Shown: piece after piece, positions 1 through 20,753 of the stretch
Layout of the letters: each line of letters begins with the position of its first letter
Numbering within the stretch: position 1 is the first letter of the stretch
Assembly (NCBI GenBank): GCA_964472345.1
Contig: CAYYLB010000011.1
Location: forward strand, 1 to 20,753
Origin: an uncultured Methanosarcinales archaeon
GTDB taxonomy: Archaea; Nanobdellota; Nanobdellia; Woesearchaeales; JAGLXL01
Length of the DNA stretch: 20,753 bases
Reading direction: 5' to 3'
Made by a program: the position numbers and the translations under genes
Notes under the pieces: generated by a model
Told to the model about the DNA's origin: nothing
Database searches by the model: none
Seen by the model: only the letters and a program-made list of their open reading frames with translations

Positions 1-135
1 GCTGCCGTACCAGCAGCGCGCCGCGATGAAAAACCAGAAGAGGCTGGGGGAGTTTGGTGATGGCCGTTAAAAAGTCGGAAGCTTTATATATAAGTTATCA
101 CTTAACAGAAGTAAAATATAAGCGAGGTGGTTTCC

Positions 136-462
136 ATGGATATTGCCGACAAAGTACAGGACATGTATAAGTTAGTTCGTTGCGGTGTACAAGCCCTTGC
201 TGTTGCCGCGGCTGTTGCGGCTGGAACGCTGACAGGATGCGCAGGCCAGGATGTTCAGCCTGCCGGGCGAGGCGCTCGCATCGGTGGGCCGGGTATCACT
301 AATCAATTTGGTCCGGGTATCACTAATCAATTTGGTCCTGGTGACTATATGATAAATGGGTCAGTAAAGTACATCCCCCGGATGGTGTGGGGACAAAGCC
401 CAGTCAACCAATTTCCTGAGTATATAGAGGGCTATAGAACAGGCGGAGCAGCATTCAGATAA
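136..462 (+). CDS. Small putative lipoprotein with tandem GPGITNQF repeats. An N-terminal hydrophobic stretch ends in a lipobox-like LTGC. A GTG at 127 or an ATG at 163 are alternative starts.
   Basis: ORF track 127..462. ATG at 136 is preceded by GAGGTG (124-129). An A/T-rich TATA-like tract lies at 84-95. The signal-like segment is 'KLVRCGVQALAVAAAVAAGTLTGC'. Confidence 0.4.
   Translation: MDIADKVQDMYKLVRCGVQALAVAAAVAAGTLTGCAGQDVQPAGRGARIGGPGITNQFGPGITNQFGPGDYMINGSVKYIPRMVWGQSPVNQFPEYIEGYRTGGAAFR
286..345. repeat. About 24-nt tandem repeat, roughly 2.5 copies (ggtccgggtatcactaatcaattt), encoding GPGITNQF-GPGITNQF-GPG.
   Basis: Direct read of the sequence. Two perfect 24-nt copies are followed by a partial copy. 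Confidence 0.7.
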
Positions 463-9307: not shown

Positions 9308-11035
9308 CTATCGCGCTGCCACAAGTTTTTCCATCACCACCATCTCTTTCTCCAGCGTCCCGTCCCCGATGGCGCGCGTCTCCTGCTCAAAATGCTTCCG
9401 GAATTCCTTGAAGAGAACCTGGTAGTGCGGCGAGACGCGCAACGGAAGCGACTGCCGCTCCCAGCGCCCCAGTGTGAGATCATCCTCGGAGGGGATCGCA
9501 ATGCCGCGCTCACGGGCTGTCCGCGGACGCTCACGCTCCTCTCCGCCCGCCCGCTCGTCAAGCATCCAGCTCCTCAGCAGGCTTGCGTAGCGCGACAGCA
9601 GGATGCCCTTGCGGATGCCGCTGCTGGCGAAATGCCCCGAAGCGCCCTGCGGGAAGGTGACCTGCGCCTCGCTGCCCTTGCGGTTGCCGTCGCGGTCATG
9701 GTACTGCACGCGGAGCGTCAGCCTGCCGTCATCGGACAGCTTCCTCAGCTTGAGCAGCACGAGGCCGCCCCGCGTCCCTTCGTCATTCGTTGCAGACGGG
9801 AAGAGCGTCGCGACCTTCATCAGCTCGCCTGTCGCCTCGCTCGCTTCCGGTGAGCCGAAGACCTTCTCGATTTCGTAGCCTTTCGCATCAAGCGTGAGCG
9901 TCAGATCGAAAACGAGCGGGGTCACCATGAAATCGAACTCGTCGCTCATCCGCTTCTTGAACTCAGTTGGTGAATGAACCGCATAGTAGTTCGCACCATT
10001 GGTTTTCGTTACGGCATCAACGAGCTCGCTGTTGAAATCAACGCCGATGCCGATGAAGGTCGTGAAGATGCCGCGTTCCGCATTGCGCTCGGTGATCTTC
10101 AGGATGTCGTCCTCATCGAGCAGGCCGATATTGGGCATCGCGTCGGTGAGGAAGATGATGCGGCTCTCGTAGCCCTGCGCTGCCGGTATTGATGAGAGCA
10201 GCTCCGTCGCCTGCTTCATGCCCGCGGAAAGGTGCGTGCCACCGCGTGCCTGCAGCTCCCGGACGTGCTGCTTGATGCTCTCAAGGCCCGCCTCCCGGAG
10301 AGGTCGCAGCTCCCTGGCAAGATATGCCTGGTCGTTAAAGAGCACGACGCCGAAGCGGTCCTCGGGCTTCAGGTGGTCCATCAGCGCGATGAGCGATTCA
10401 CGCGCAACCTCGATCTTGCTGCGCGCAGCCTCTTCTCCCTGATCGATAACGCTTCCGCTGCCGTCATAATAGTACCGGTCAAACTGCTCGTTCATGGAGC
10501 CGGAAATGTCGAGCACGACGACGAGATTGAGCTTCTTCCGCTGGAAGTCCTCTTCCCTGATTCCTGAATTGAGCCCGACGGAAAGGTAGTACTCGGGCTT
10601 TTGGGAGAGCGGATCGGCGGAAATGGCGGTGTGGTACGATGGGCAGAACAGCTCGGCACACGGCTGCGTTTCACCCGTATCAAAGTAATAATCGTAGAAG
10701 AGCCCTTCATAGGTGATGTCGGTAGGGAGCGGCAGGTAGCCTGCGGCAATGTTCTCGCGGAAGTTGCTGATGTCCTTGGCGCCGCCAGTGGAGAAGCCGA
10801 TGGATGCGGCCGATGCAGACTCAGCGGCTACTATGGTTGGTGAGCCTCCGCCACCCGAGCCTCCGGTTGAAGTGAATTGAGGCCTGCCGATGGCCACTTT
10901 CCCGCCTTCCTGTTCGCTTATCCCCGTGCTGACCTGGAGCGCGTTCAGGCCGTTCTTCTGCACGAGCACAACAACCGCAGTTACTGCAATAACGGCTATC
11001 GCCAGCACCATCAGCACTTTCAGCGGCTTACGCAT
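9308..11035 (-). CDS. N-terminally membrane-anchored von Willebrand factor A (VWA) domain protein with a poly-Gly linker.
   Basis: TM 'VLMVLAIAVIAVTAVVVLV', linker 'GGSGGGGSPTIVAAESASAA', and MIDAS motifs 'VLDISGSM'...'THLSAGM'...'LTDAMPN'. The start at 11035 lies 2 nt after the upstream gene's stop, indicating an operon. Confidence 0.75.
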   Translation of the reverse strand: MRKPLKVLMVLAIAVIAVTAVVVLVQKNGLNALQVSTGISEQEGGKVAIGRPQFTSTGGSGGGGSPTIVAAESASAASIGFSTGGAKDISNFRENIAAGYLPLPTDITYEGLFYDYYFDTGETQPCAELFCPSYHTAISADPLSQKPEYYLSVGLNSGIREEDFQRKKLNLVVVLDISGSMNEQFDRYYYDGSGSVIDQGEEAARSKIEVARESLIALMDHLKPEDRFGVVLFNDQAYLARELRPLREAGLESIKQHVRELQARGGTHLSAGMKQATELLSSIPAAQGYESRIIFLTDAMPNIGLLDEDDILKITERNAERGIFTTFIGIGVDFNSELVDAVTKTNGANYYAVHSPTEFKKRMSDEFDFMVTPLVFDLTLTLDAKGYEIEKVFGSPEASEATGELMKVATLFPSATNDEGTRGGLVLLKLRKLSDDGRLTLRVQYHDRDGNRKGSEAQVTFPQGASGHFASSGIRKGILLSRYASLLRSWMLDERAGGEERERPRTARERGIAIPSEDDLTLGRWERQSLPLRVSPHYQVLFKEFRKHFEQETRAIGDGTLEKEMVVMEKLVAAR

Positions 11036-12368
11036 AGGCACCACCCACCATCGCTGAAAGGTAATGGTCAGGCATCGGGAGCGCGCTCCACAGGAACATG
11101 ATGATACCGCCAAACAGCAGCAGCCAGAAGAGCGTCGCGCCGAAGGCGAAGAGCCCCATGCCAGCTCCTTCCCTTAGGCCAAGGTAGAGTGCGGGTGCAA
11201 AAACCAGGCCGAGCATGGCAAGGCCAACGAAGAGCGGCAACAGGACAAACATGAGGCCGGCGTATCCGTCGTGGTAGCTGCTCACGCGCGCTGCGTACCA
11301 GAGCACTCCGACGGCGCCGAAATAGACGAAGTACACCAGTACTGCGCTCACGAAGCTCACAAGGAGCGCTTTCGTGAGCGCAGCGCTTTTCGCTGCCTGT
11401 GCAGGATAGCTGCGCTTCAGGGGGCGGGAGAGGGTGTCCTTTCGCTGTGCGGAGGTGTGGCTGCTTCCGTAGCATTTCATTTGTGCGGCGAACCGCACGG
11501 CAAGCGTAGCAAGTGCCGCAAAAATCAGGGTGACTACTGCGATGATGATGAGGATCCGCCACTTGTAGAGCAGCAGCGAGGAGGAAGCGTACGCTGCCGT
11601 GACGTGGAAGCTCTCCCACGGATCGAGCGACTGTGTTTCTTTGACAAGGCCGGAGACGTGCTCGACGCGATCCGAGAGCTTGCTGAGGGTGCTTGCGGGG
11701 GCTCCACCGATTGGTGCGGCTTCCTTCGCAGAGATGGCGAGCGAAAACGCAGACTGGTAGTCGACAGCGGTCGTGCTGCCCTTGAGCTTGAAGTCAGGGA
11801 GCGCGTTCACTGCCACGCGGATGTGGTGCGTGTCCACTCCCATCCTGATGGTTTCAAAGTCCGCCTTCCAGACGCCGAGGCTTTTCTTCGCATAATCACC
11901 TGCTTTGTAGTACAGGAGAATCGTGGCACGCTCGTTCTGCTCCACTGGCACGGGCAGCTCAAATCTGAGCATCGTTGAGTGCGAGAGCGTTTCCTGCGTG
12001 TAAAGAACGGGGTAGTATTGAGCGGGGTAGTATTCCGGTCCATACCTCACGCCATCGCCGGAGCCGTACGGATCGTAGCGCCAGTCATCATACGCTTCCG
12101 CTTCCTGCATGATGCTGATGATGCGCACGCTGGTGCCGGGAATCTCGACGCTGAAACCATATAATGGCTCTGGCGGGAGATTGTTGAGCGAAAGCTTCGC
12201 GACCACCTCTGCTTCCCCTTCACCGTCGAAGATCACGGAGTAGTGCTGCGTGTTGGTGAGAAAGCGGTCGGGGGACGGGTCTCCGGGATAATCATAGGGG
12301 GAAGCCAACACTGCAGGCACGATGAGGACGAGCAGCAGCACCGCCGTTCTGAGAGGATTTGTGTTCAT
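11028..12368 (-). CDS. Polytopic membrane protein with a cleavable signal peptide, a ~250-aa extracytoplasmic domain and about 4 TM helices. First gene of the operon with the VWA protein.
   Basis: Signal 'MNTNPLRTAVLLLVLIVPAVLASP'. Hydrophobic helices run from 'WRILIIIAVVTLIF' onward. GGTGA sits 10 nt upstream of the ATG. Minus-strand TATA at 12404-12411. Confidence 0.6.
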   Translation of the reverse strand: MNTNPLRTAVLLLVLIVPAVLASPYDYPGDPSPDRFLTNTQHYSVIFDGEGEAEVVAKLSLNNLPPEPLYGFSVEIPGTSVRIISIMQEAEAYDDWRYDPYGSGDGVRYGPEYYPAQYYPVLYTQETLSHSTMLRFELPVPVEQNERATILLYYKAGDYAKKSLGVWKADFETIRMGVDTHHIRVAVNALPDFKLKGSTTAVDYQSAFSLAISAKEAAPIGGAPASTLSKLSDRVEHVSGLVKETQSLDPWESFHVTAAYASSSLLLYKWRILIIIAVVTLIFAALATLAVRFAAQMKCYGSSHTSAQRKDTLSRPLKRSYPAQAAKSAALTKALLVSFVSAVLVYFVYFGAVGVLWYAARVSSYHDGYAGLMFVLLPLFVGLAMLGLVFAPALYLGLREGAGMGLFAFGATLFWLLLFGGIIMFLWSALPMPDHYLSAMVGGAYA

Positions 12369-12430
12369 GGTCGCTTCACCGAAAGACGAAGGGGAAGCCT
12401 TCTATTTATACCCCGGAGTAAGCTGCAAAT

Positions 12431-12445
12431 GGGGTTGAAGTCTTC
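12431..12445 (-). promoter_or_regulatory. Box a of the conserved GAAGACTTCAACCCC element. It lies 22 nt upstream of the minus-strand TATA for the membrane/VWA operon. On the plus strand it is 6 nt upstream of a second TATA-like tatttaag (12452-12459).
   Basis: Direct read. The element aligns with the boxes at 16716-16729, 18478-18492 and 16553-16561. Confidence 0.5.
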
Positions 12446-12650: not shown

Positions 12651-14183
12651 ATGAAGCTTCGCATGAAACGCAATTTGAACATCATGGCGATCGCCGCTCT
12701 TGCCTGTTTCCTGGCGCTCGTGATGCTGACATCAGCGCAGCAGGCAGCGGTCACGTTTCTGGAGCCGGTGAAAGTGCCGCACGGCGCAGACACCATCACG
12801 TTCGATAAGATCGGCCCTGTCTATTTCGGAGCGGACACGAATTATGAGGAACGGCAGACGGAGCGGTATATTGACCACAAGCTCTATGGCAAGGACGCGA
12901 AAACAAATGACTACCGGCTCGTCATTGATATGGATCCCATCCTCTGCCAGGCGAATGTTGAGCTGGCAGCGGTTGAGGAGCAGTACCGGGTTCCGAGCAG
13001 CCGGCTGACGGCTCTGGCAGACATCACTGACAAGGACGGAAAGCTCGTTGACTCGGGATTTGCGGAATGCACCTCCCAGCCGTACCTTGACGATGAGCGG
13101 CAGCGGGCATGTGTGTACCGCATCCCTTCATTCAAAAGCCTGGCGGGAGAGCAGGCGCGCGGCAACCGCTTCACCTGCACCATCAAGTTCCTTGATGACA
13201 ATGACAACGCGGTCGCGCAGGCAGCGTCACAGAAGCCTGCGGTGGTTGCGGATGTGAACTATCATGTCGCTAACATTGTTGACGAAGAGAAGGTTAACTA
13301 TGCGAGTCCGATTGCTGATTATGGGGATTTTAGCACGCAGTATCATTACTTTACTGATATCAGCGGTGTCCGCTCCCAGGAAGAGCTTGATGACACCCGC
13401 AGCAAAGAGAAGCTCGGGAAGGTGGTCTTTCATGGCATCATCGCAGTCACCATGAACCGCGAGGTTTCTCCCGTTCAGGTCATTCTGGACCGTGGGCTTG
13501 AGGCCTGCTTTGTTCATCCAACTCACAGCAATCGAATGATGGAGGTGGTTGGTGTGTCGATCGGTGATGAGGAGAAGCATGCAGGGGACGTGATGGTGGG
13601 GTTTTCTCCTGACATCGTCGAGCAGCTCAATGAGTGCAACCGCCAGGTGAGCACTGCACGAGGCGAAACGGAGTTGGGTGGAGAAAGCGGCCATGCAGTT
13701 TTTGGAGAGCATTATATCCTTCTCTCAAACACCAAAGAGTTTTTATGGGTCTATGATTCGGTGAAGAATCTCATTTCAAGGCATGAGCCTGTTGCCTTCA
13801 GCCACGAGATGGGACATGCCCGTGAGTTTGAAGAAACCGCAGGGTATGCTGCATGTGACGAGTACGACTACGAACTCTGGAAGAAACAGGATCAAGACTT
13901 CAAAGAAAGCGGTTTTCAAGGCTGTCCCAATCCATGGCCGCCCTGCTGCTGCGCCGAGGTGGATGGCACCAACTGCCTTGAGGTAAACGAGGCCTGTATG
14001 GGTACCGAGGAAATCAGGTCAAGAAGCACGGGGAGGGTCGTCATCCGCAGTCCTGTCTGCTATGGAATGCCCCTTGATTATTCTGAGCAGAACAAACTGG
14101 GCCCATTCATGGGTTTCAGCGTGATGGGAAAAGGAAACGCGTATCCTCTCTCCTTTCCGTCCCCATTGCCGAAGGTCGGGTAG
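12651..14183 (+). CDS. Secreted zincin-like metalloprotease candidate (HExxH) with a Cys-rich C-terminal region.
   Basis: Signal peptide 'MAIAALACFLALVMLTSAQQA'. 'AFSHEMGHAREFEE' has the HExxH plus downstream E arrangement. The C-terminal segment reads 'CPNPWPPCCCAEVDGTNCLEVNEACMG'. AAGGGG sits 10 nt upstream of the ATG, and tttataag lies at 12596-12603. Confidence 0.55.
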   Translation: MKLRMKRNLNIMAIAALACFLALVMLTSAQQAAVTFLEPVKVPHGADTITFDKIGPVYFGADTNYEERQTERYIDHKLYGKDAKTNDYRLVIDMDPILCQANVELAAVEEQYRVPSSRLTALADITDKDGKLVDSGFAECTSQPYLDDERQRACVYRIPSFKSLAGEQARGNRFTCTIKFLDDNDNAVAQAASQKPAVVADVNYHVANIVDEEKVNYASPIADYGDFSTQYHYFTDISGVRSQEELDDTRSKEKLGKVVFHGIIAVTMNREVSPVQVILDRGLEACFVHPTHSNRMMEVVGVSIGDEEKHAGDVMVGFSPDIVEQLNECNRQVSTARGETELGGESGHAVFGEHYILLSNTKEFLWVYDSVKNLISRHEPVAFSHEMGHAREFEETAGYAACDEYDYELWKKQDQDFKESGFQGCPNPWPPCCCAEVDGTNCLEVNEACMGTEEIRSRSTGRVVIRSPVCYGMPLDYSEQNKLGPFMGFSVMGKGNAYPLSFPSPLPKVG

Positions 14184-14448
14184 GACAATCATCCCCGTTC
14201 TCTGGCTCGTTCTTTTGGCCAGTTCATCCTGCGCGTGCTGCCTGCCACTCCGTGCCGCTCCGCGGAGCATGGCTTGTTCTTGTCGATTGCGCCGGCCTTA
14301 TGGGCAGCGCGGGTTGACACCGGAACCGGCAGGGCGTTCCCATCGGTGCGATAGTTGACGAAAATTTGCTTTATAGTGCAAACTTTTTACCTATTTCTTT
14401 GCAGTATAATGCAAACATTTATAAACAACTGTCGCTTCTTCCCCTGCT

Positions 14449-15684
14449 ATGCTTCGAGATAGGCTCATCCTGCAGCAGCGGGAGCTGGATCAGAAACGGA
14501 AAGAGCGCTACATCCCGCGCAACGTCCCCACACCCCCCCTAGAGCTCATCACCATCATCATCGGCCCGAGGAGAGCGGGCAAGTCCACCTTTGCCATCCG
14601 CGCCTTTGACGCTCCATTCGCATACGTGAACTTTGACGATGAGCTCCTGGCAGGCACCGAGAACTATGATGAGATTCTTGCGGGTTTGGATTCGCTCTAT
14701 GGTAATCCTTCCGCCTACCTTTTTGACGAAATTCAGAACCTGCCGAAGTGGGAGCTCTTTGTCAACCGGTTGCATCGGTCTGGGAAAAAAGTGCTCATCA
14801 CAGGAAGCAACGCCCATCTTCTCAGCAAGGAGCTGGCAACACACCTCACGGGGCGCCATCTTCCTGTCATCCTCTTTCCTTTTTCATTTCCCGAAGCGCT
14901 CAAGCTCGAGCAGCGGGAGCTGACGGTTCCGGAAATCAAGAGCCGGCTGCAAACCTACCTTGTCAGGGGGGGTTACCCCGAAACGCTCCTGAAGGGTATC
15001 GACCACAAAGAATATCTCACGACATTATTTGCTTCCACCATCTATAAGGATATTGTCGGCCGTTTCCGCATCCGGAACCCCCGCTCCATCGAGAATCTCG
15101 CCGTCTATCTCCTTTCGAATGTCGGAAAAGAATTCTCCTTGAACACGCTTCGCCAGCTTACCCGGAGCAAGAGTTTCCACACCGTAGAGAAGTATGTGGG
15201 TTATCTTGAGGAAGCATTCCTCTTTTTCTCGCTGCAATCGTTTTCCTACAAGCTCAGGGAACGGGGGGCACGAAAGAAGATCTATTGCATCGACAACGGC
15301 CTCATCACGGCAGCAGCGTTCCAGATCAGCCCGGACATCGGCAGGCTGTCGGAGAATGTGGTGGCAATCCAGCTCAGGAAGGAAGAGCTGCGCGGCCGCT
15401 GCCAGCTCTTTTTCTGGAAAAACCCGCAGCAGGAAGAGATCGACTTTGTGGTGAAGAAAGGCGTGGCCGTTGCGGAACTCATCCAGGTATGCCACGCGCT
15501 TCCCGGCCAGAAAACGAAGGAACGGGAAATCCGGGCGCTGCTGAAGGCATCCCGCGAGCTCCGCTGCAAGAAGCTTACCGTAGTCACGGGGGAGCAGGAA
15601 GGAGAAGAAACACTGGAATGGTTCGGCATCGAGCGGAAGCTCCGGTTCGTTCCCCTGTGGAAATGGCTGCGGGAAAGGGACTAG
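14449..15684 (+). CDS. AAA+ ATPase of the DUF4143/COG1373 type.
   Basis: Walker A 'GPRRAGKST', Walker B 'AYLFDEIQ', and a C-terminal DUF4143-like region. TATA tttataaa (14418-14425) lies 28 nt upstream. Confidence 0.8.
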   Translation: MLRDRLILQQRELDQKRKERYIPRNVPTPPLELITIIIGPRRAGKSTFAIRAFDAPFAYVNFDDELLAGTENYDEILAGLDSLYGNPSAYLFDEIQNLPKWELFVNRLHRSGKKVLITGSNAHLLSKELATHLTGRHLPVILFPFSFPEALKLEQRELTVPEIKSRLQTYLVRGGYPETLLKGIDHKEYLTTLFASTIYKDIVGRFRIRNPRSIENLAVYLLSNVGKEFSLNTLRQLTRSKSFHTVEKYVGYLEEAFLFFSLQSFSYKLRERGARKKIYCIDNGLITAAAFQISPDIGRLSENVVAIQLRKEELRGRCQLFFWKNPQQEEIDFVVKKGVAVAELIQVCHALPGQKTKEREIRALLKASRELRCKKLTVVTGEQEGEETLEWFGIERKLRFVPLWKWLRERD

Positions 15685-15742
15685 GGCGGTAGCGCGGCGC
15701 CAAGGCTTCTTGCAGCCTGCTTCGAGAACCTTGTGCTCATGC

Positions 15743-16471
15743 TCACTCTATCTCGAACCCCACGTCCACCTGCACGCTCACCGTGACGTCGCGGGGGCTG
15801 ATGGCGGTCTGTTCTGCCGCAAGCTCGCTCCGCGCGTAGAAGATGGGCGGGACAAAGCCAAGCTCGCTCACGGACACTGCTTTCCCGAGCGCGACGCCGA
15901 GGCTTTCTGCGATGACTGCCGCCCGCTCCCGCGCGTCGCCCGCGGCTTTTGCGAGCAGCTCTGCGTGGACGGCCCTCTGCTTCCCGTCCGAGAGGGTGAA
16001 CGCGATGGACTGGACGGTGTTCGCTCCGTTTTCCACGGCAGCGTCAACCAGCGCTCCGACGCCATCAAGTTTCGTTGTCGTGACCATGATGGTATGGTCC
16101 AGCCGGAACCCCTTGTCCACGCTCTTGCCGAGCAGCGGGTCCCATTCCTGGAAAGGATAGAGCGCATACGTGGTCGTTTCGATCTCATCGTCCCTGACGC
16201 CGGTGTCCTTGAGCGCCCGCATCACCTGATTCATCTGCGCGCGGCTGCGCTCCTGCACCTGCTTTGCGTCTTTCCCTTCGGTGCTCACGCCCAGCGCGAC
16301 CAGCGCCTTGTCGGGAGCGACGTCTTTCTGGGCAGAGCCTGACACCCGTACCTGATTCATGCTGCCATCGCCTGAAACGACGATCTGCCGCTCGCCGAGG
16401 CTGAAGAAGAGCGCTGCGGCAAGCAGGACGAGCACGCCGAGCGTGATGCTGTACAAGGTCTTTTCGTTCAT
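15743..16471 (-). CDS. SIMPL/DUF541-family (BP26/OMP28-like) periplasmic-type protein with an N-terminal TM/signal.
   Basis: 'LVLLAAALFF' anchor followed by SIMPL-like 'IVVSGDGSMNQVRVSGSAQKDVAPDKALVALGV...' and beta-rich repeats. Minus-strand TATA at 16503-16516. Confidence 0.7.
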   Translation of the reverse strand: MNEKTLYSITLGVLVLLAAALFFSLGERQIVVSGDGSMNQVRVSGSAQKDVAPDKALVALGVSTEGKDAKQVQERSRAQMNQVMRALKDTGVRDDEIETTTYALYPFQEWDPLLGKSVDKGFRLDHTIMVTTTKLDGVGALVDAAVENGANTVQSIAFTLSDGKQRAVHAELLAKAAGDARERAAVIAESLGVALGKAVSVSELGFVPPIFYARSELAAEQTAISPRDVTVSVQVDVGFEIE

Positions 16472-16533
16472 GGGGAGATCACCGCCGCCGATAATGGGCT
16501 TCTTTTATTTAAATGGTGCGGAAAGCTTCGGCG

Positions 16534-16562
16534 GCGGTTGAAGTTATCTCTTCTTCAACCGC
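16534..16562. terminator. Strong hairpin with a 10-bp stem (gcggttgaag / cttcaaccgc) and a 9-nt loop. It contains the stop codon of the 35-aa ORF and doubles as box d (ACTTCAACCGCC) 22 nt upstream of the SIMPL-gene TATA.
   Basis: Perfect inverted repeat read directly from the sequence. Confidence 0.45.
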
Positions 16563-16651
16563 TCCCGTATCGCCATCACCACGACGAACACCACGATCGC
16601 CACCGCGGCGCCGAGCAGGAACCAGAGCAGGACGTCGGGCTGCTGCATCAT
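16544..16651 (-). CDS. 35-aa single-TM micro-protein MMQQPDVLLWFLLGAAVAIVVFVVVMAIRERLKKR. It is below the ORF-track length cutoff.
   Basis: ATG-ATG start. It has its own minus-strand TATA (16686-16694) preceded by box b. It is closely similar to the C-terminal TM anchor of the 17709..18437 regulator ('QQSDAVVWFLLGAAVTIIAVIIIAILWKYSRKKKQKG'). Confidence 0.45.
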   Translation of the reverse strand: MMQQPDVLLWFLLGAAVAIVVFVVVMAIRERLKKR

Positions 16652-16715
16652 GGATTGCGGGGTGTATCATGCAAGCATCCGGCAGCATTTAAACAGCTTC
16701 TGATAGCTGCAACGC

Positions 16716-16729
16716 GGATTGAAGTCTTC
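16716..16729. promoter_or_regulatory. Box b (GGATTGAAGTCTTC; minus-strand reading GAAGACTTCAATCC). It lies 23 nt upstream of the minus TATA for the micro-protein. On the plus strand it is 6 nt upstream of TATA tttaaataa (16736-16744), which serves the gene at 16767.
   Basis: Direct read. The box sits in a bidirectional promoter arrangement. Confidence 0.5.
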
Positions 16730-16766
16730 GCTGGGTTTAAATAATTTCTTGCCCAGCACTTTCTTC

Positions 16767-17690
16767 ATGAACAAGGGGGAGATGATGTTTATGAAACCGA
16801 AAGAGCAACTGCAAAAACTTAGGAAGCATTGGCTTGCTGCCGCGCTTGTTGTCGGAGTGCTCGTCATCTTCCTGATGATCGGAACGGGACGTGTTGCGAC
16901 ATTTCAGGGCACCACGGATGTCCAGGAGCGAGGTTGGGGTCAACTTGTGGTGCAATCTGCTGGTGGCGGAGGTGGAGGCGGCTCTGGAAGACTTATCGGA
17001 GCAGCAGCATCTGAATCCTTGCAAAACCTTCTTGATCGTAAAGTGGCTACCGATGTTACCCTCTCAACGGAAATTGAACGGGGGACATTTCAGAAGGCAG
17101 AGCAACAGCTCAAGGCGACCATCTCAGCAAACAAAGGCCTCATTCTCGATGAGAAATTGGCACGACACGGCTCGGGCAGATCATTGGCGTACGAAGGGAG
17201 CTACCGCATCAAAATAAGCCCGGATAATTACGATCGCGCCATAGCCCAATTAAAGGCAATAGGGGGAGTTGTTGAATTCACCCAGCACAGTGAAGACATT
17301 TCAGATCAGTATGTGAACACGCAGGTAGAGATCGATACCGAGAAATCGCGGCTTGTGCGTTATAACCGGATCTATGCAGATGCAGTGACAATCGAGGAGA
17401 AGCTCAGCATTACCAACCTGATATTCGAGCAGGAGCGGAAAATCAAATATCTGGAAGACGCGCTGAAAAACAGTGACCAGCGGCTTGAGTATGTCGCCAT
17501 TGCGTTATCGCTGCAAGAAAAACGCTCAGCATACGTGGATATTGTCGTCGTCAAGTTCGCGCAACTGGCGAAGCTCTTCGTCGCAAGAATGAACGGCCTC
17601 CTCGAGTTCCTCTTCGTGGTGCTGCCGTTTGGGATTGCCGCGCTGATGGTGTGGCTTTTCGTACGATTCGTGCGAAGACGGAGGCAGTGA
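16767..17690 (+). CDS. Bitopic membrane protein. It has an N-terminal TM, a poly-Gly linker, a ~230-aa extracytoplasmic coiled-coil-rich domain, and a C-terminal TM with an Arg-rich tail.
   Basis: 'WLAAALVVGVLVIFLMIGTGRVATF', 'GGGGGGGSGRLIGAAASES', C-terminal 'FLFVVLPFGIAALMVWLFVRFVRRRRQ'. ATG at 16767 lies 27 nt from the TATA. ORF-track start 16719 is upstream of the promoter. Confidence 0.55.
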   Translation: MNKGEMMFMKPKEQLQKLRKHWLAAALVVGVLVIFLMIGTGRVATFQGTTDVQERGWGQLVVQSAGGGGGGGSGRLIGAAASESLQNLLDRKVATDVTLSTEIERGTFQKAEQQLKATISANKGLILDEKLARHGSGRSLAYEGSYRIKISPDNYDRAIAQLKAIGGVVEFTQHSEDISDQYVNTQVEIDTEKSRLVRYNRIYADAVTIEEKLSITNLIFEQERKIKYLEDALKNSDQRLEYVAIALSLQEKRSAYVDIVVVKFAQLAKLFVARMNGLLEFLFVVLPFGIAALMVWLFVRFVRRRRQ

Positions 17691-17730
17691 TATTCCTTTT
17701 TTATCTCTTTATCCTTTTTGTTTCTTCTTT
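17691..17730 (+). terminator. T-rich tract (tattccttttttatctctttatcctttttgtttcttcttt) after the stop of the + gene. This is an archaeal oligo-T style terminator.
   Basis: Direct read. It partly overlaps the 3' end of the convergent gene. Confidence 0.35.
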
Positions 17731-18428
17731 CTAGAATACTTCCAAAGAATAGCAATGATAATAACAGCAATAATCGTCACTGCGGCGCCGAGCAAAAACC
17801 AAACCACTGCATCTGATTGCTGAGCGACAACCGTAGCAGCCTTCGCGGTAGCCTCTTCAGCTGCACCTGAGGCATTTTGCACCATCTCTTTGGCTGATTC
17901 TCCAGTGGTTGCTATGCTTCCTCCACCTCCTCCTCCGCCTTCAAGAACGGACTTCGCAAGAAGCTGGTCTTGTAGCTCGCTCCCTACCGAGGAGACGGTT
18001 CCTGAGGCCGAGAACACAGCAATTCTCCCACTGACTAACGCCAAGAGTCCTGCAAAGAGAGCACTGACTCCTAACGCAATGCCCGCCACCGGCAGCACCG
18101 CCCTCAGCTTCTCCCGCAGGCCTTCGATCTTCTTTGGAGCGATGATGATGTACTTGTTCGCGAGCTTGTAGTGCTGCACCTCCCTGCCCTTGGGGCTGTA
18201 GTGGAACTCTTCCGTTGCGATGAGCTTGGCTTCCTGCAGCTTCTGGATATGATAATGCACGGTCGAGAGCGGAATGCCAAGAGCGGCGGCGATGCCCGAC
18301 TCAGTGTCGTCTTCCCTGTCCGCAAGATGCTCAAGGATCCTCCTGCTGGTCTCGCTGGTGATGGTCTCGGCGAGCTTCTTGGTTTTTGGCTCGCTCAGAT
18401 CAACGAGGAGGAACTTGCCTTTTGCCAT
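17709..18428 (-). CDS. Membrane-tethered ArsR-family winged-HTH transcriptional regulator. Domain order is wHTH, TM1, poly-Gly loop, TM2, Lys-rich tail.
   Basis: 'SETSRRILEHLADREDDTESGIAAALGIPLSTVHYHIQKLQEAKLIATEE' is an ArsR-type HTH. TM1 is 'VLPVAGIALGVSALFAGLLALV'. The loop carries 'GGGGGGGS'. TM2 is 'VVWFLLGAAVTIIAVIIIAILW', followed by 'KYSRKKKQKG'. ATG 18428 (M4) fits TATA 18451-18459. ORF-track start 18437 is also possible. Confidence 0.6.
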   Translation of the reverse strand: MAKGKFLLVDLSEPKTKKLAETITSETSRRILEHLADREDDTESGIAAALGIPLSTVHYHIQKLQEAKLIATEEFHYSPKGREVQHYKLANKYIIIAPKKIEGLREKLRAVLPVAGIALGVSALFAGLLALVSGRIAVFSASGTVSSVGSELQDQLLAKSVLEGGGGGGGSIATTGESAKEMVQNASGAAEEATAKAATVVAQQSDAVVWFLLGAAVTIIAVIIIAILWKYSRKKKQKG

Positions 18429-18477
18429 GGGAAGCATCTGCGGAAGCCGCTTTAAATACGTTGTGATGGCTTCGAAC

Positions 18478-18492
18478 GGGGTTGAAGTCTTC
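18478..18492 (-). promoter_or_regulatory. Box c (GAAGACTTCAACCCC on the minus strand). It lies 21 nt upstream of TATA tatttaaag for the ArsR-TM regulator gene.
   Basis: Direct read. It is identical to box a over 15 nt. Confidence 0.5.
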
Positions 18493-18515
18493 GCGGGGCG
18501 TTGCGGGCGCGGCGT

Positions 18516-19208
18516 TCACCGTCGCCGTTCGTGCCCTCCTGTATCACTCATCCCGCCCGCAGGAAACGAAAGTGGGGATGAGAGCGGGGGTGGCGCGGCA
18601 CGGCTGAGAAGCCGCACCCATCGGTAGCTGTGGAACAGGACGACATGGTCACGGACAGCCTGGCGTGCGAAGGGGTCGCCCTTCCGTAAGAGCCCGATGA
18701 AGTCTTTTGTCCGCAGGAGCCGTGCAGAAACCCTGTTTTCAAGAGTGACGAAGCACGTTTCAACGATGGCAGTGATTCTTTTCCGGTGCATCTTCCTCAT
18801 CAGCAGGAGCATATCAAGGTCGCTTTCCTTCGTCCCGGTGCCGCGGGCAAGAGAGCCGAAGACCAGCGCAGCATCAACAAGAGGGGCTGCCTCTTTCCTG
18901 AACTGCTCCATCGGGCCACGGAAGCGGGGATGTTTCATAAGGAAACCGGCAAGCGTTTCCCTCTCCAGCAGCGCAAAGCAGAGGCGTCCCGTTTCGGAGG
19001 CAAGGTTTGGCCGCAGCAGCCTGAGCAGCGGCTTCTTCCCCCTGAGTTCCTCCGCGATCACCTCCGCCGTGAGCAGCTCCTGCACATAGGCGTAAGCCCT
19101 TTTCTGCGAGGCGCGGACCTCCCTGATCAAGGCTGATATGGGGATTTCTCCCCGTCGGTAGACTGCTTCAATGATCTTGTATTTCGTTTGCGGAATGGGA
19201 AAAATCAT
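18516..19208 (-). CDS. Minimal nucleotidyltransferase (pol-beta superfamily, MntA-like) fused to an N-terminal wHTH-like domain.
   Basis: 'ALVFGSLARGTGTKESDLDMLLL' matches the GS-x9-13-DxD NTase motif. The ATG at 19208 overlaps the upstream HEPN stop as ATGA. ORF-track start 19295 lies inside the HEPN gene. Confidence 0.7.
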   Translation of the reverse strand: MIFPIPQTKYKIIEAVYRRGEIPISALIREVRASQKRAYAYVQELLTAEVIAEELRGKKPLLRLLRPNLASETGRLCFALLERETLAGFLMKHPRFRGPMEQFRKEAAPLVDAALVFGSLARGTGTKESDLDMLLLMRKMHRKRITAIVETCFVTLENRVSARLLRTKDFIGLLRKGDPFARQAVRDHVVLFHSYRWVRLLSRAAPPPLSSPLSFPAGGMSDTGGHERRR

Positions 19209-19717
19209 CGGTAACACCTCTCCTCGATGAACGGAACAATCTTCTTCGCCAGCAGGTACACGCTCTCCGCATCGCTCCGCGACAGCTGCTTCCATTTCCC
19301 GACATCATACTGCCCGATTTTCCTCAGGGAATACATGACATCAAAGCCCGTGAAGTCCGCGAACTTCGCATGGATCCCCCTAAGCTCGCCGTAGAGCCCC
19401 GACGGGAGGACATCAAAAAACGTGAGGGCGAGAATGGCGCAGAGATGATCCTTCGAGTAGAACCCTCTCTCCTTGATGAGCAGCGCATTCATCGCATGGT
19501 GGATCGCGTAGTACGACTTGACGATGGCCCAATCCCACTGCTCCCGGGAGAAGTCAGCGTCGACGCTCCGCAGGTCGCTCTTTGCCTTTTCCAGGTGCGA
19601 AGAAAATTCCCCGGTTTGCACCTCAACAAACTTTCCCAGGGAAGCACAGTTCTCATAGGCAGCCCTGACACGCTCGGGCTTCTGCGGCAGCTGAGGGACG
19701 ACTTCTTCGATGACCAT
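19205..19717 (-). CDS. HEPN-domain protein, a putative toxin/RNase partner of the downstream nucleotidyltransferase.
   Basis: All-helical; 'WDWAIVKSYYAIHHAMNALLIKERGFYSKDH' matches the HEPN core helices. It is translationally coupled to the NTase gene. TATA atatataaat (19741-19750) lies 28 nt upstream. Confidence 0.6.
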   Translation of the reverse strand: MVIEEVVPQLPQKPERVRAAYENCASLGKFVEVQTGEFSSHLEKAKSDLRSVDADFSREQWDWAIVKSYYAIHHAMNALLIKERGFYSKDHLCAILALTFFDVLPSGLYGELRGIHAKFADFTGFDVMYSLRKIGQYDVGKWKQLSRSDAESVYLLAKKIVPFIEERCYR

Positions 19718-19933
19718 AATAGACAGAATAGTATATAACTATATATAAATTTATCTATTTTTCCCCGTGCGCTGTATGTGGGCGCAACGAAGCGCATGAA
19801 TCACCACTGCATAACCTACAGGGGGAGGCGTCAGAGGCGCGTGGACCCCCTTGTGATCATTCTGGATCCGTGCTCGCCCTGCTCTTGCGAACGGGGGAGC
19901 GAAAGCGATGGACTGTATGACGCAGACGCCCCT

Positions 19934-20624
19934 TTATTCTATTTTGTCATGCTTTTCCAAATTACATTTAGCACAGAGAATCCTTACATTTTTTTCGGTT
20001 ATACTACTTCCCCCTTTAGAAAATGGTAACTCATGGTCGTAATGTAAGTTTTTGGTCGAACCACAAAGAACACACCGATTTTTTGTCTCTTTTCCAGACG
20101 GCAACTTTAACATTGGTTGGTATAAGTCTCGTATGTTCTTCTTCATCTTTTCCTTTTGGAATCTCGATAGCATCCTCAATAGGCTTAAGAATAAATTTTA
20201 GAACTTTTCTACCATTTGAAATTCTTGTCTCATAGTCAATCAATGAGAATAGCCCTTTTTCTGACCAAATTCCAGAATTTAATTTTTCAAAAACAAGTAT
20301 TTTTTCTGGAGAAATCAAGCCTTTTTTATAATCTTCTACTGCTTTCACAAATTTGCCATTTTCTGTCAATGTTCCATTATCAGTTAATAGTGGTTGATCA
20401 ATTTGCTTTGGTTCGGGGTTTTGTTTTGATTTTGGAACATCGTGACCCTCATAGATCAGCAAATTCCTCTCAATATCTATCTCATCGTCATATGGGGCGC
20501 CAGGCCTAACAGACATTAAAATGGCAGAAAGGCCCTTTTTTATGTGAAAATTCATCCCTTTCTGAATGGTATTTACATGAATTTTATTACACATCTCCCG
20601 AAAAGACAAAATTTCATCTTTCAT
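19934..20624 (-). pseudogene. HNH endonuclease with an uncharacterised N-terminal domain, interrupted by a 1-nt frameshift in a T6/A6 homopolymer (20079-20084).
   Basis: Frame 1 ends '...VKVAVWKRDKKSVCSLW'. Frame 2 continues 'KNRCVLCGSTKNLHYDHELPFSKGGSSITEKNVRILCAKCNLEKHDKIE' (CxxC...HxDH...N...CxxCN, an HNH motif). Deleting one A restores 'WKRDKNRCVLCGS'. The region is strongly AT-rich compared with its flanks. Confidence 0.6.
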
Positions 20625-20753
20625 ATTAACACCTGATTATAGGAAATAAATAAACCTTTCCCAAGGGGTGCCGGGTGCTATTGCACATAACCCATAACGC
20701 CCGAACAAAAACCATTTAAACCCCCCATCCGCCCCCGAAGCGCATGGCTCTCC

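Follow-up and report, generated by a model that had tools for sequence, protein, structure and literature searches.

Introduction

Transmembrane transcription regulators (TTRs) are common in archaea, where 367 of 404 species have at least one; 17% of TTRs have two transmembrane (TM) helices, and in the general view they work from the membrane (PMC10269533). ArnR of Sulfolobus acidocaldarius, an archaeal helix-turn-helix (HTH) regulator with a HAMP-like and sensor region and two C-terminal TM helices, is described as membrane-bound and binds N5-spaced inverted repeats in its target promoter (box TCGAC-N5-GTCGA); the detergent-purified full-length protein binds promoter DNA (PMC6396743). Here we analyse a 20,753-nucleotide contig from an uncultured archaeon of the Woesearchaeales (CAYYLB010000011.1, assembly GCA_964472345.1), the whole of which we call the window, and in it the gene at 17709..18437 (-), which codes for an ArsR-type winged helix-turn-helix (wHTH) protein predicted to be tethered to the membrane by two TM helices. 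A conserved box in front of genes of this regulator's family and of the cell-surface genes that lie next to them, above all those for DUF4349 proteins, points to an undescribed envelope regulon.

DPANN archaea, among them the Woesearchaeota, have tiny genomes and few regulators and depend on cell-surface contacts, and to our knowledge almost nothing is known about how their genes are regulated. The family described here would supply a transcription factor that is nearly universal in Woesearchaeota and has a precisely delimited candidate operator, a predicted regulon that consists almost wholly of envelope proteins, and a first functional setting for DUF4349 and SIMPL, two widespread domains of unknown function, tying both to transmembrane control of transcription in archaea and bacteria. 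The protein itself is of a kind already known: by the definition of Demey et al. 2023 (a DNA-binding domain and at least one predicted TM segment) it is a TTR, through its HTH_20 match and two hydrophobic segments, and the view of the original prediction for this locus, that membrane-anchored one-component regulators are rare, is outdated (PMC10269533). What is new is the regulator family, the box with its envelope regulon, the conserved convergent DUF4349 partner and the link between DUF4349 and SIMPL across the two domains of life.

ArnR and ArnR1, which activate archaellum promoters, resemble the regulator in combining an archaeal N-terminal HTH with two C-terminal TM helices, in their N5-spaced boxes and in the control of surface structures. 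The comparison is one of architecture, not of sequence: ArnR is restricted to Sulfolobales and Desulfurococcales, has a different box and no known DUF4349 partner, and carries a cytoplasmic HAMP-like and sensor region. Here, in contrast, about 10 residues separate the wing from TM1, leaving no room for such a region, and the family has an external loop of 36-97 aa. In the bacterial pairs ToxR-ToxS, TcpP-TcpH and CadC-LysP a neighbouring membrane protein modulates or protects the tethered regulator. Those systems likewise join a tethered DNA-binding domain to a neighbouring gene for a membrane protein and serve envelope or virulence genes, but they have an OmpR-type winged helix, a single TM helix, a folded periplasmic sensor and a partner in the same operon, whereas the regulator has two TM helices, a disordered loop and no Pfam match to the OmpR-type domain Trans_reg_C. 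Its best structural and sequence matches are ArsR/SmtB proteins, PH1932 and Phr, with which it shares the wHTH fold and the S-x-x-H-x-x-x-L pattern of the recognition helix. Unlike ArsR/SmtB proteins, it has no metal ligands, and a TM hairpin takes the place of the C-terminal dimerisation helix.

The regulator and its family

The open reading frame (ORF) of the regulator gene is 242 aa long, but the protein probably has 239 aa and starts at ATG 18428 (MAKGKF...), because the distance from box to ATG then becomes 62 nt, the mode of the family, and the family N-terminus MAK.NFLLVDL fits. Pfam places HTH_20 (PF12840) on residues 28-75 with 44.2 bits against a cut-off of 27, and there are lesser matches to HTH_24, MarR_2, IclR and HTH_5. 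An AlphaFold2 monomer model, with 24 homologues as input and a mean predicted local distance difference test score (pLDDT) of 72.5, gives the wHTH helices at 17-26, 29-40, 46-53 and 57-69 and strands at 73-80 and 86-92; beyond the wing come a long helix at 104-142 (juxtamembrane segment and TM1), a low-confidence loop and a helix at 208-241. The best matches of this model in a Foldseek comparison with the PDB are PH1932 (an ArsR homologue), Phr, SmtB and CadC of pI258, with a probability of 1.00 for PH1932, SmtB and CadC, and a profile search of PDB sequences agrees (5duk, 1uly). The wHTH domain, aa 17-92 (18162..18389, -), is thus defined by the model, by Foldseek and by invariant columns of the homologue alignment, namely the recognition helix P-L/I-STVHYH-x-QKL and the wing FHYSxKGREVxHYKLANKYIII.

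TM1, at about aa 113-137 (18027..18101, -), is supported by hydropathy and the alignment as well as by the modelled helix. Ahead of it stands a basic juxtamembrane helix, GLREKLR, that is conserved; TM1 itself has two invariant residues, L115 and P116, and a nearly invariant G123. The predicted extracytoplasmic loop, about aa 138-210 (17808..18026, -), is acidic, of low complexity and unconserved, has a pLDDT below 60 and contains GGGGGGGS. From alignment, hydropathy and charge, TM2 (about aa 211-232, with a W-F-L-x-G motif) and a Lys-rich cytoplasmic tail follow at 17712..17807 (-); in the homologue alignment G217 is invariant and W213, F214 and L215 are conserved to at least 90%. A Kyte-Doolittle plot shows exactly two hydrophobic segments, at 119-135 and 215-231 in the window regulator, and the same number in 78 of 80 homologues. 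Mean net charges in these homologues, +3.4 ahead of TM1, -2.9 for the loop and +2.3 for the tail, favour an N-in/C-in topology with the HTH and tail inside the cell and the Gly-rich loop outside. The original prediction had proposed this topology, with the HTH inside, for an ArsR-like wHTH followed by TM1, a loop with GGGGGGGS, TM2 and a Lys-rich tail, and that layout was borne out by Pfam, AlphaFold2, hydropathy and the ArsR/SmtB-like folds that Foldseek recovered.

A word-indexed protein search returned at least 722 homologues at E <= 0.001. The best 120 have 189-275 aa and are mostly 45-50% identical to the regulator over nearly the full length, and those with named source organisms come from Woesearchaeota, Nanoarchaeota or Nanoarchaeia. 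An exhaustive profile search yielded 1953 clusters at 50% identity; E <= 1e-30 is reached by 457, and the best 150 all lie between 109 and 312 aa. Judged by sequence, this is a large and uniform family of the Woesearchaeota and Nanoarchaeota. Its N-terminal 116 residues are nearly invariant (P-I/L-STVHYH-L-QKL, FHYSxKGREVxHYKLANKYIIIAP, GLxEKLxxxLP); TM1 is weakly conserved apart from the Leu-Pro and the one Gly; the loop is unalignable and rich in Ala, Ser, Val, Glu and Thr; and the boundary of TM2 is marked by a conserved motif, QPDIALWFLxGS, with a basic tail after the helix. A poly-Gly run of four or more was found in the loop of no other family member examined, so that GGGGGGGS belongs to the window protein alone. 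Databases name the homologues merely "helix-turn-helix domain-containing" or "ArsR family regulator", and our literature search found no publication on the family.

The box and the predicted envelope regulon

Regulator genes are preceded by a 31-nt box whose core is a partial dyad, ACTTCAA-N5-TTGAAGT. The upstream element that they share reads TAACTTCAAC-N4-ATT[CGT]AA[AG]C-yTATCAnAAC and directly abuts TATTTAAA. The box begins 61-64 nt ahead of the regulator ATG in 69 of 79 loci (87%) and spans roughly -62 to -32 relative to that ATG, just upstream of, and partly over, the position of the transcription factor B recognition element (BRE). The regulator genes are probably leaderless. In archaea, a position upstream of BRE and TATA is typical of activators such as ArnR, and it suggests activation here too. 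Recognition helix and box are both essentially invariant in the main class of regulators, which leaves no covariation to read.

A position weight matrix (PWM) run over 832 kb found 158 box sites, compared with 4.3 in block shuffles, and 69 of them are the regulator's own promoter. At the other 89 sites the first downstream ORF codes for a DUF4349 protein in 38 cases, and for SIMPL, a 446-aa family and a PF09826 beta-propeller in three cases each; one VWA protein and several small lipoprotein-like or TM proteins are further targets. Setting regulator and DUF4349 genes aside, 17 of 23 box targets have an N-terminal hydrophobic segment, against a background of 29%.

The window holds four box sites where 0.05 are expected with the full matrix, and some also emerge as repeat families (D3/D4 at 16697-16727, D3 at 12421..12442). 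The strongest is in the regulator promoter (18450..18490, -), where the box at 18460-18490 (AGACTTCAACCCCGTTCGAAGCCATCACAAC, 33.4 bits) abuts the TATA element about 30 nt before ATG 18428. The next, at 16697-16727 (19.8 bits), lies in a divergent promoter (16688..16745) between a micro-ORF and the DUF4349 gene and is flanked by the TATA-like elements TTTAAA (16688-16693) and TTTAAATAA (16737-16745). A third box (16516..16546, -; 18.2 bits) stands in the promoter of a SIMPL (DUF541) gene at 15743..16471 (-), which is a predicted regulon member for that reason; its product is N-terminally anchored and matches PF04402 with 158.6 bits (gathering threshold 25.2). This site is also present in the contig of the regulator's closest homologue, L001. 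The fourth is a box core at 12421..12442 (18.8 and 11.4 bits on the two strands) in the promoter of a gene at 11028..12368 (-), a further predicted regulon member. Its 446-aa product has a signal or multi-TM layout and no Pfam family. In loci L008, L033 and L077 the regulator gene is immediately followed by a homologue that has a box; in L010 a homologue lies downstream too, but no box was scored there. The original prediction had the regulator feed a boxed regulon, and the box does stand before the regulator, DUF4349, SIMPL and other envelope genes.

The core at 12421..12442 has TATA-like elements on both sides, and across it from the 446-aa gene lies 12651..14183 (+), which codes for an unannotated secreted protein of 510 aa. 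Elsewhere, box-preceded micro-ORFs for single-TM or lipoprotein-like peptides of 41-62 aa lie by the regulator gene (L026:5643-5830, L043:4976-5220). The regulon may repeatedly include small membrane peptides.

The convergent DUF4349 gene

Tail to tail with the regulator gene lies 16767..17690 (+). The original prediction had described its product as a bitopic protein with a C-terminal TM helix and an Arg-rich tail, and it proved to be a DUF4349 protein: PF14257 matches residues 91-300 with 86.6 bits (gathering threshold 27.7) over profile positions 1-213 of 213, and the alignment and an AlphaFold2 model agree. The true start is probably ATG 16791 (MKPKEQLQKLRKHWL), since the N-terminus then matches the family. 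In the model and by Pfam, an N-terminal TM helix leads into a Gly-rich, disordered stalk and then a ferredoxin-like domain that comes with a helical hairpin, and the protein ends in a second TM helix and an RRRRQ tail. Its cytoplasmic N-terminus measures about 14 aa, and zf-HC2 (PF13490) finds no match in it. Of three papers found to mention DUF4349, the two listed have nothing to do with regulation.

We compared gene order in 82 loci: 80 from a scan of species-representative genomes, the window and L001. A DUF4349 gene lies within 4 kb of the regulator gene in 47, downstream and convergent in 43, and the gap between the two is at most 100 nt in 15. The neighbour pairing that the original prediction proposed is therefore strongly conserved in other genomes. 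It follows the recognition helix: among the 63 regulators of the ST.HYH.QKL class, 47 (75%) have DUF4349 nearby, in the subgroup whose recognition helix starts with PLPT a SIMPL gene follows in 5/5, and the STVHYNL subgroup has neither. A SIMPL gene adjoins the regulator gene in 11 loci, and the window alone among the 82 has DUF4349 and SIMPL together. Two metagenome-assembled genomes (L018/L050 and L015/L064) each carry two regulator paralogues, each copy beside its own DUF4349 gene, which suggests that the pair was duplicated together, unless the bins mix strains.

Bacteria offer a parallel. The DUF4349 query weakly matched a protein of 423 aa that begins with a zf-HC2 anti-sigma domain, and this zf-HC2-DUF4349 architecture recurs in six clusters (P0135-P0139, P0147) that are 23-36% identical to one another. 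In all four genomic contexts examined, its gene comes directly after one for an extracytoplasmic function (ECF) sigma factor, and in one bacterial lineage (three contigs) a SIMPL gene follows with a 4-nt overlap. On these three contigs, L082, L084 and L085, genes for NUDIX, ECF sigma, zf-HC2-DUF4349 anti-sigma and SIMPL proteins form a conserved operon. DUF4349 thus recurs as the external portion of a membrane-spanning device by which a transcription factor is controlled, with SIMPL as a companion in both domains. The two modules agree in the N-in two-TM layout of DUF4349, in its position next to a transcription factor gene and in having SIMPL alongside. They differ in that the bacterial sigma factor is soluble and held by a cytoplasmic zf-HC2 domain, whereas here the wHTH itself is tethered, the cytoplasmic part of DUF4349 is a stub, and the genes are convergent and not co-transcribed. 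This parallel, an analogy, is the strongest argument that the archaeal DUF4349 protein may be more than a target, and it lends independent support to the comparison with anti-sigma systems made in the original prediction.

The shared anchor module

The original prediction also held that the two neighbouring proteins carry a paralogous anchor module and drew from it that they act as a pair. The similarity is real in this genome. By BLASTP the modules are 38% identical over 80 aa (E = 0.049), and their Smith-Waterman score of 101 compares with 35 +/- 6.7 for segment-wise shuffles, none of 2000 reaching it; with the poly-Gly removed the score is 59 against 28.8 +/- 5.6, reached by one of 2000. 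It also beats all of about 1,300 non-cognate comparisons of regulators with DUF4349 proteins (maximum 48). The 36 other cognate pairs do not share it (mean score 30.7, against 26.1 for non-cognate pairs). GRVATF and poly-Gly are absent from the other DUF4349 proteins aligned and conserved in neither family, and only 5 of 80 regulators have a G/S-R-[VIM]-x-x-[FY] motif after TM1. The DNA of the two modules is 48.6% identical, and the third codon base matches at 8 of 30 identical residues, which is random and argues against recent duplication or conversion.

Two origins could thus be ruled out, recent gene conversion because of these nucleotide figures and a family-wide feature because the module is seen in this genome alone. 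Since the similarity is confined to this genome, it does not underlie the pairing between regulator and DUF4349, and L001 has the regulator with no DUF4349 gene at that place. The VWA protein of the window (9308..11113, -) has an N-terminal TM helix and a GGSGGGGS...AAESASAAS stalk that resembles both the regulator loop and DUF4349; against the module, this TM helix and Gly-rich stalk together score z = 8.4, and 2.2 without the poly-Gly. The SIMPL N-terminus reaches a z of about 4 against the regulator module. To us the module is an anchor-and-stalk style specific to the lineage, which the anchored proteins of this genome appear to favour and which is strongest in the regulator/DUF4349 pair. 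The original interpretation is partly supported, right on topology, pairing and regulon and wrong on the evidential weight of the shared module.

A mosaic locus

Comparison with L001 by blastn, together with the GC profile, delimits a low-GC mosaic segment at 16654..18083. Positions 19798..18084 match L001 2429..4142 at 94.5% of nucleotides, a stretch that takes in the HEPN gene, the nucleotidyltransferase gene and the part of the regulator gene for its N-terminal third; the left breakpoint is at about codon 117, after LPVA in L001, at the start of TM1. Similarity resumes at 16653..16540, which matches L001 4426..4539 (87%), the 3' end of the L001 regulator gene with TM2, tail and stop, and continues at 16548..15743 with the L001 SIMPL gene (90%). 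Between these stretches lie 1430 bp (18083..16654) whose GC content is about 0.50, while the DNA on either side has 0.58-0.63; they take the place of a 283 bp loop-coding region of L001. With this segment came a different TM1, loop, TM2 and tail, as well as the convergent DUF4349 gene and the box with its two TATA-like elements.

The micro-ORF at 16544..16651 (-) codes for a 35-aa TM peptide, MMQQPDVLLWFLLGAAVAIVVFVVVMAIRERLKKR. It is 87% identical in nucleotides to the 3' end of the L001 regulator gene and, to judge from this, is the stranded original TM2 and tail of the regulator gene, now behind its own box and TATA; BLASTP still aligns it with TM2 of the window regulator (E = 5e-5). Its ATG-ATG start corresponds to GTG-ATA in L001, and the five conservative replacement and six synonymous changes that separate the two sequences are too few to judge selection. 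The stranded peptide, with a box promoter of its own, could be an extra decoy or modulator.

An independent Logan assembly (L086) reproduces 14395..17709 of the window at 99.9% and calls the micro-ORF as a gene. It confirms the right-hand junction, with DUF4349, box, truncated TM2 and SIMPL, and its contig ends at 17709; the DUF4349 cassette therefore does lie within a locus of the L001 type, where it must adjoin the 3' end of a regulator gene. For the left junction, near 18084, the NCBI contig is the sole support, which leaves a small risk of an assembly chimera.

Proposed mechanism and alternatives

On balance we think it probable, with some reserve, that the protein is a transmembrane regulator that binds the box, autoregulates and controls the envelope regulon from the membrane, with DUF4349 as its likeliest partner or sensor. 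Its ArsR-type wHTH lies about 10 residues away from a two-helix membrane hairpin whose loop is a variable, disordered, acidic spacer and not a folded sensor domain. A dimer would bind the box immediately upstream of BRE/TATA at its own promoter and at those of DUF4349, SIMPL and the 446-aa membrane protein, and in other genomes at those of beta-propeller and VWA genes, regulating itself and the cell-envelope regulon while attached to the membrane. DUF4349, as the most conserved predicted member of the regulon, would be the likeliest extracytoplasmic partner or sensor, modulating the regulator through contacts at the level of the membrane, by analogy with the bacterial ECF sigma/anti-sigma module. 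What the data show directly is the fold, the layout with two TM helices, the breadth of the family, the gene order, where the box occurs and how well it is conserved, and the fusions in bacteria; that this protein is what binds the box, that it activates, that it works from the membrane and that it touches DUF4349 are inferred from these.

Several points weigh against this proposal. The link between regulator and box is one of sequence, and some other factor could bind the box; the very short tether from wing to TM1 may hinder operator binding at the membrane; and because the loop is unconserved, any specific extracytoplasmic contact must use the TM helices. DUF4349 could be a target only. It is not nearby in about 43% of loci, some subfamilies having SIMPL instead or neither, and it is absent from the closest relative, L001, where the order is regulator, small ORF, SIMPL. 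A fusion of an HTH with DUF4349 (a "Rosetta stone") was looked for in the top 150 representatives of the family and in the best 120 matches of the word-indexed search and found in neither, and a Foldseek search with the DUF4349 model returned weak ferredoxin-like or coiled-coil matches alone, none with E < 1e-3, and so gave no functional clue.

The same tether and loop would suit regulated proteolysis, a possible route that we nevertheless consider unlikely. The regulator would be stored inactive in the membrane until an envelope signal, or the loss of protection by DUF4349, exposed the loop to a site-1 protease, after which an intramembrane protease would cut TM1 and free the wHTH for the box, as in RseA/RsiW or TcpP-TcpH. 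The loop is disordered, unconserved and rich in Ala, Ser, Thr, Glu and Pro, the invariant Leu-Pro and nearly invariant Gly of TM1 are helix-destabilising residues, the tether is very short, and bacterial DUF4349 sits in anti-sigma factors, which often work through regulated intramembrane proteolysis. Yet protease genes are linked to the regulator in 0 of the 82 loci examined, and TM2 and its boundary motif are conserved beyond the need of a mere anchor remnant. TTRs, moreover, are thought to act from the membrane (PMC10269533), and full-length, membrane-bound ArnR binds DNA (PMC6396743). We give less credence to the idea that a different factor binds the box and that the membrane wHTH is itself a regulon member with another role, such as DNA tethering or protein binding. 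The BRE-proximal part of the box could indeed be a promoter-class element, but autoregulation is classically signalled by a box in a regulator's own promoter, as seen here in 87% of loci, the recognition helix and wing are invariant, as is the half-site, even between genomes that diverge widely, and the dyad-like core suits a dimeric wHTH.

It is about equally improbable that the shared module (TM helix, GR[IV]A[VT]F, poly-Gly-Ser) is a paralogous device that pairs regulator and DUF4349 in the membrane: its similarity lies far above shuffles and all non-cognate pairs, with poly-Gly removed too, but is confined to this genome, rests on motifs unconserved in both families, is lacking in other cognate pairs and is shared in style by the VWA protein and the SIMPL N-terminus, and the nucleotide and third-base figures count against it as well. 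A chimera in the assembly, joining the N-terminal part of an L001-like strain's gene to the regulator 3' end and DUF4349 gene of a second strain, seems more improbable still as the source of the full-length ORF. The breakpoint does end a highly conserved stretch, GC shifts there, and just one NCBI contig is known to carry the exact protein, the Logan contig stopping at 17709; against this, the other junction was reproduced in the independent assembly, the ORF is unbroken and its product has the canonical architecture of the family. To a classical metal-sensing ArsR/SmtB repressor with incidental hydrophobic C-terminal helices we attach virtually no weight. HTH_5 and HTH_20 matches and the structural likeness to SmtB, CadC and ArsR would fit it, but the protein has zero Cys, NCBIfam NF033788 scores 25.3 bits against a cut-off of 55, and TM1 occupies the region of the alpha-5 dimerisation and metal helix, so that metal sensing of that type could be ruled out.

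If the membrane-bound regulator is placed in a wider setting, the device of these Woesearchaeota might be an archaeal counterpart of the bacterial ECF sigma/anti-sigma systems that draws on the same extracytoplasmic modules, DUF4349 and SIMPL, with a tethered factor, DUF4349 as external sensor or gatekeeper and the surface proteome as output. We offer this as a tentative idea. Archaea being without sigma factors, the transcription factor itself would be the membrane-tethered component. VWA, beta-propeller, SIMPL and other anchored proteins would then be what probable episymbionts present to their surroundings or hosts.

Other features of the window

Upstream of the regulator gene, 18516..19717 (-) holds overlapping genes for a HEPN protein (19205..19717) and a wHTH-nucleotidyltransferase (18516..19295), a HEPN/MNT-type pair that resembles a toxin-antitoxin system. 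A link between this pair and the regulator was ruled out, as the window shares the arrangement with L001 alone and it is not conserved elsewhere. Beyond it, at 19800..20753, GC falls to about 0.43; a 197-aa ORF (20031..20624) without a family match is overlapped in another frame by an 81-aa HNH endonuclease ORF (19934..20179), and the region may be a frameshifted or foreign restriction-like element. At the other end of the window, a small putative lipoprotein-like ORF without a family match (127..462) contains a tandem 24-nt repeat at 285..332, which gives GPGITNQF twice.

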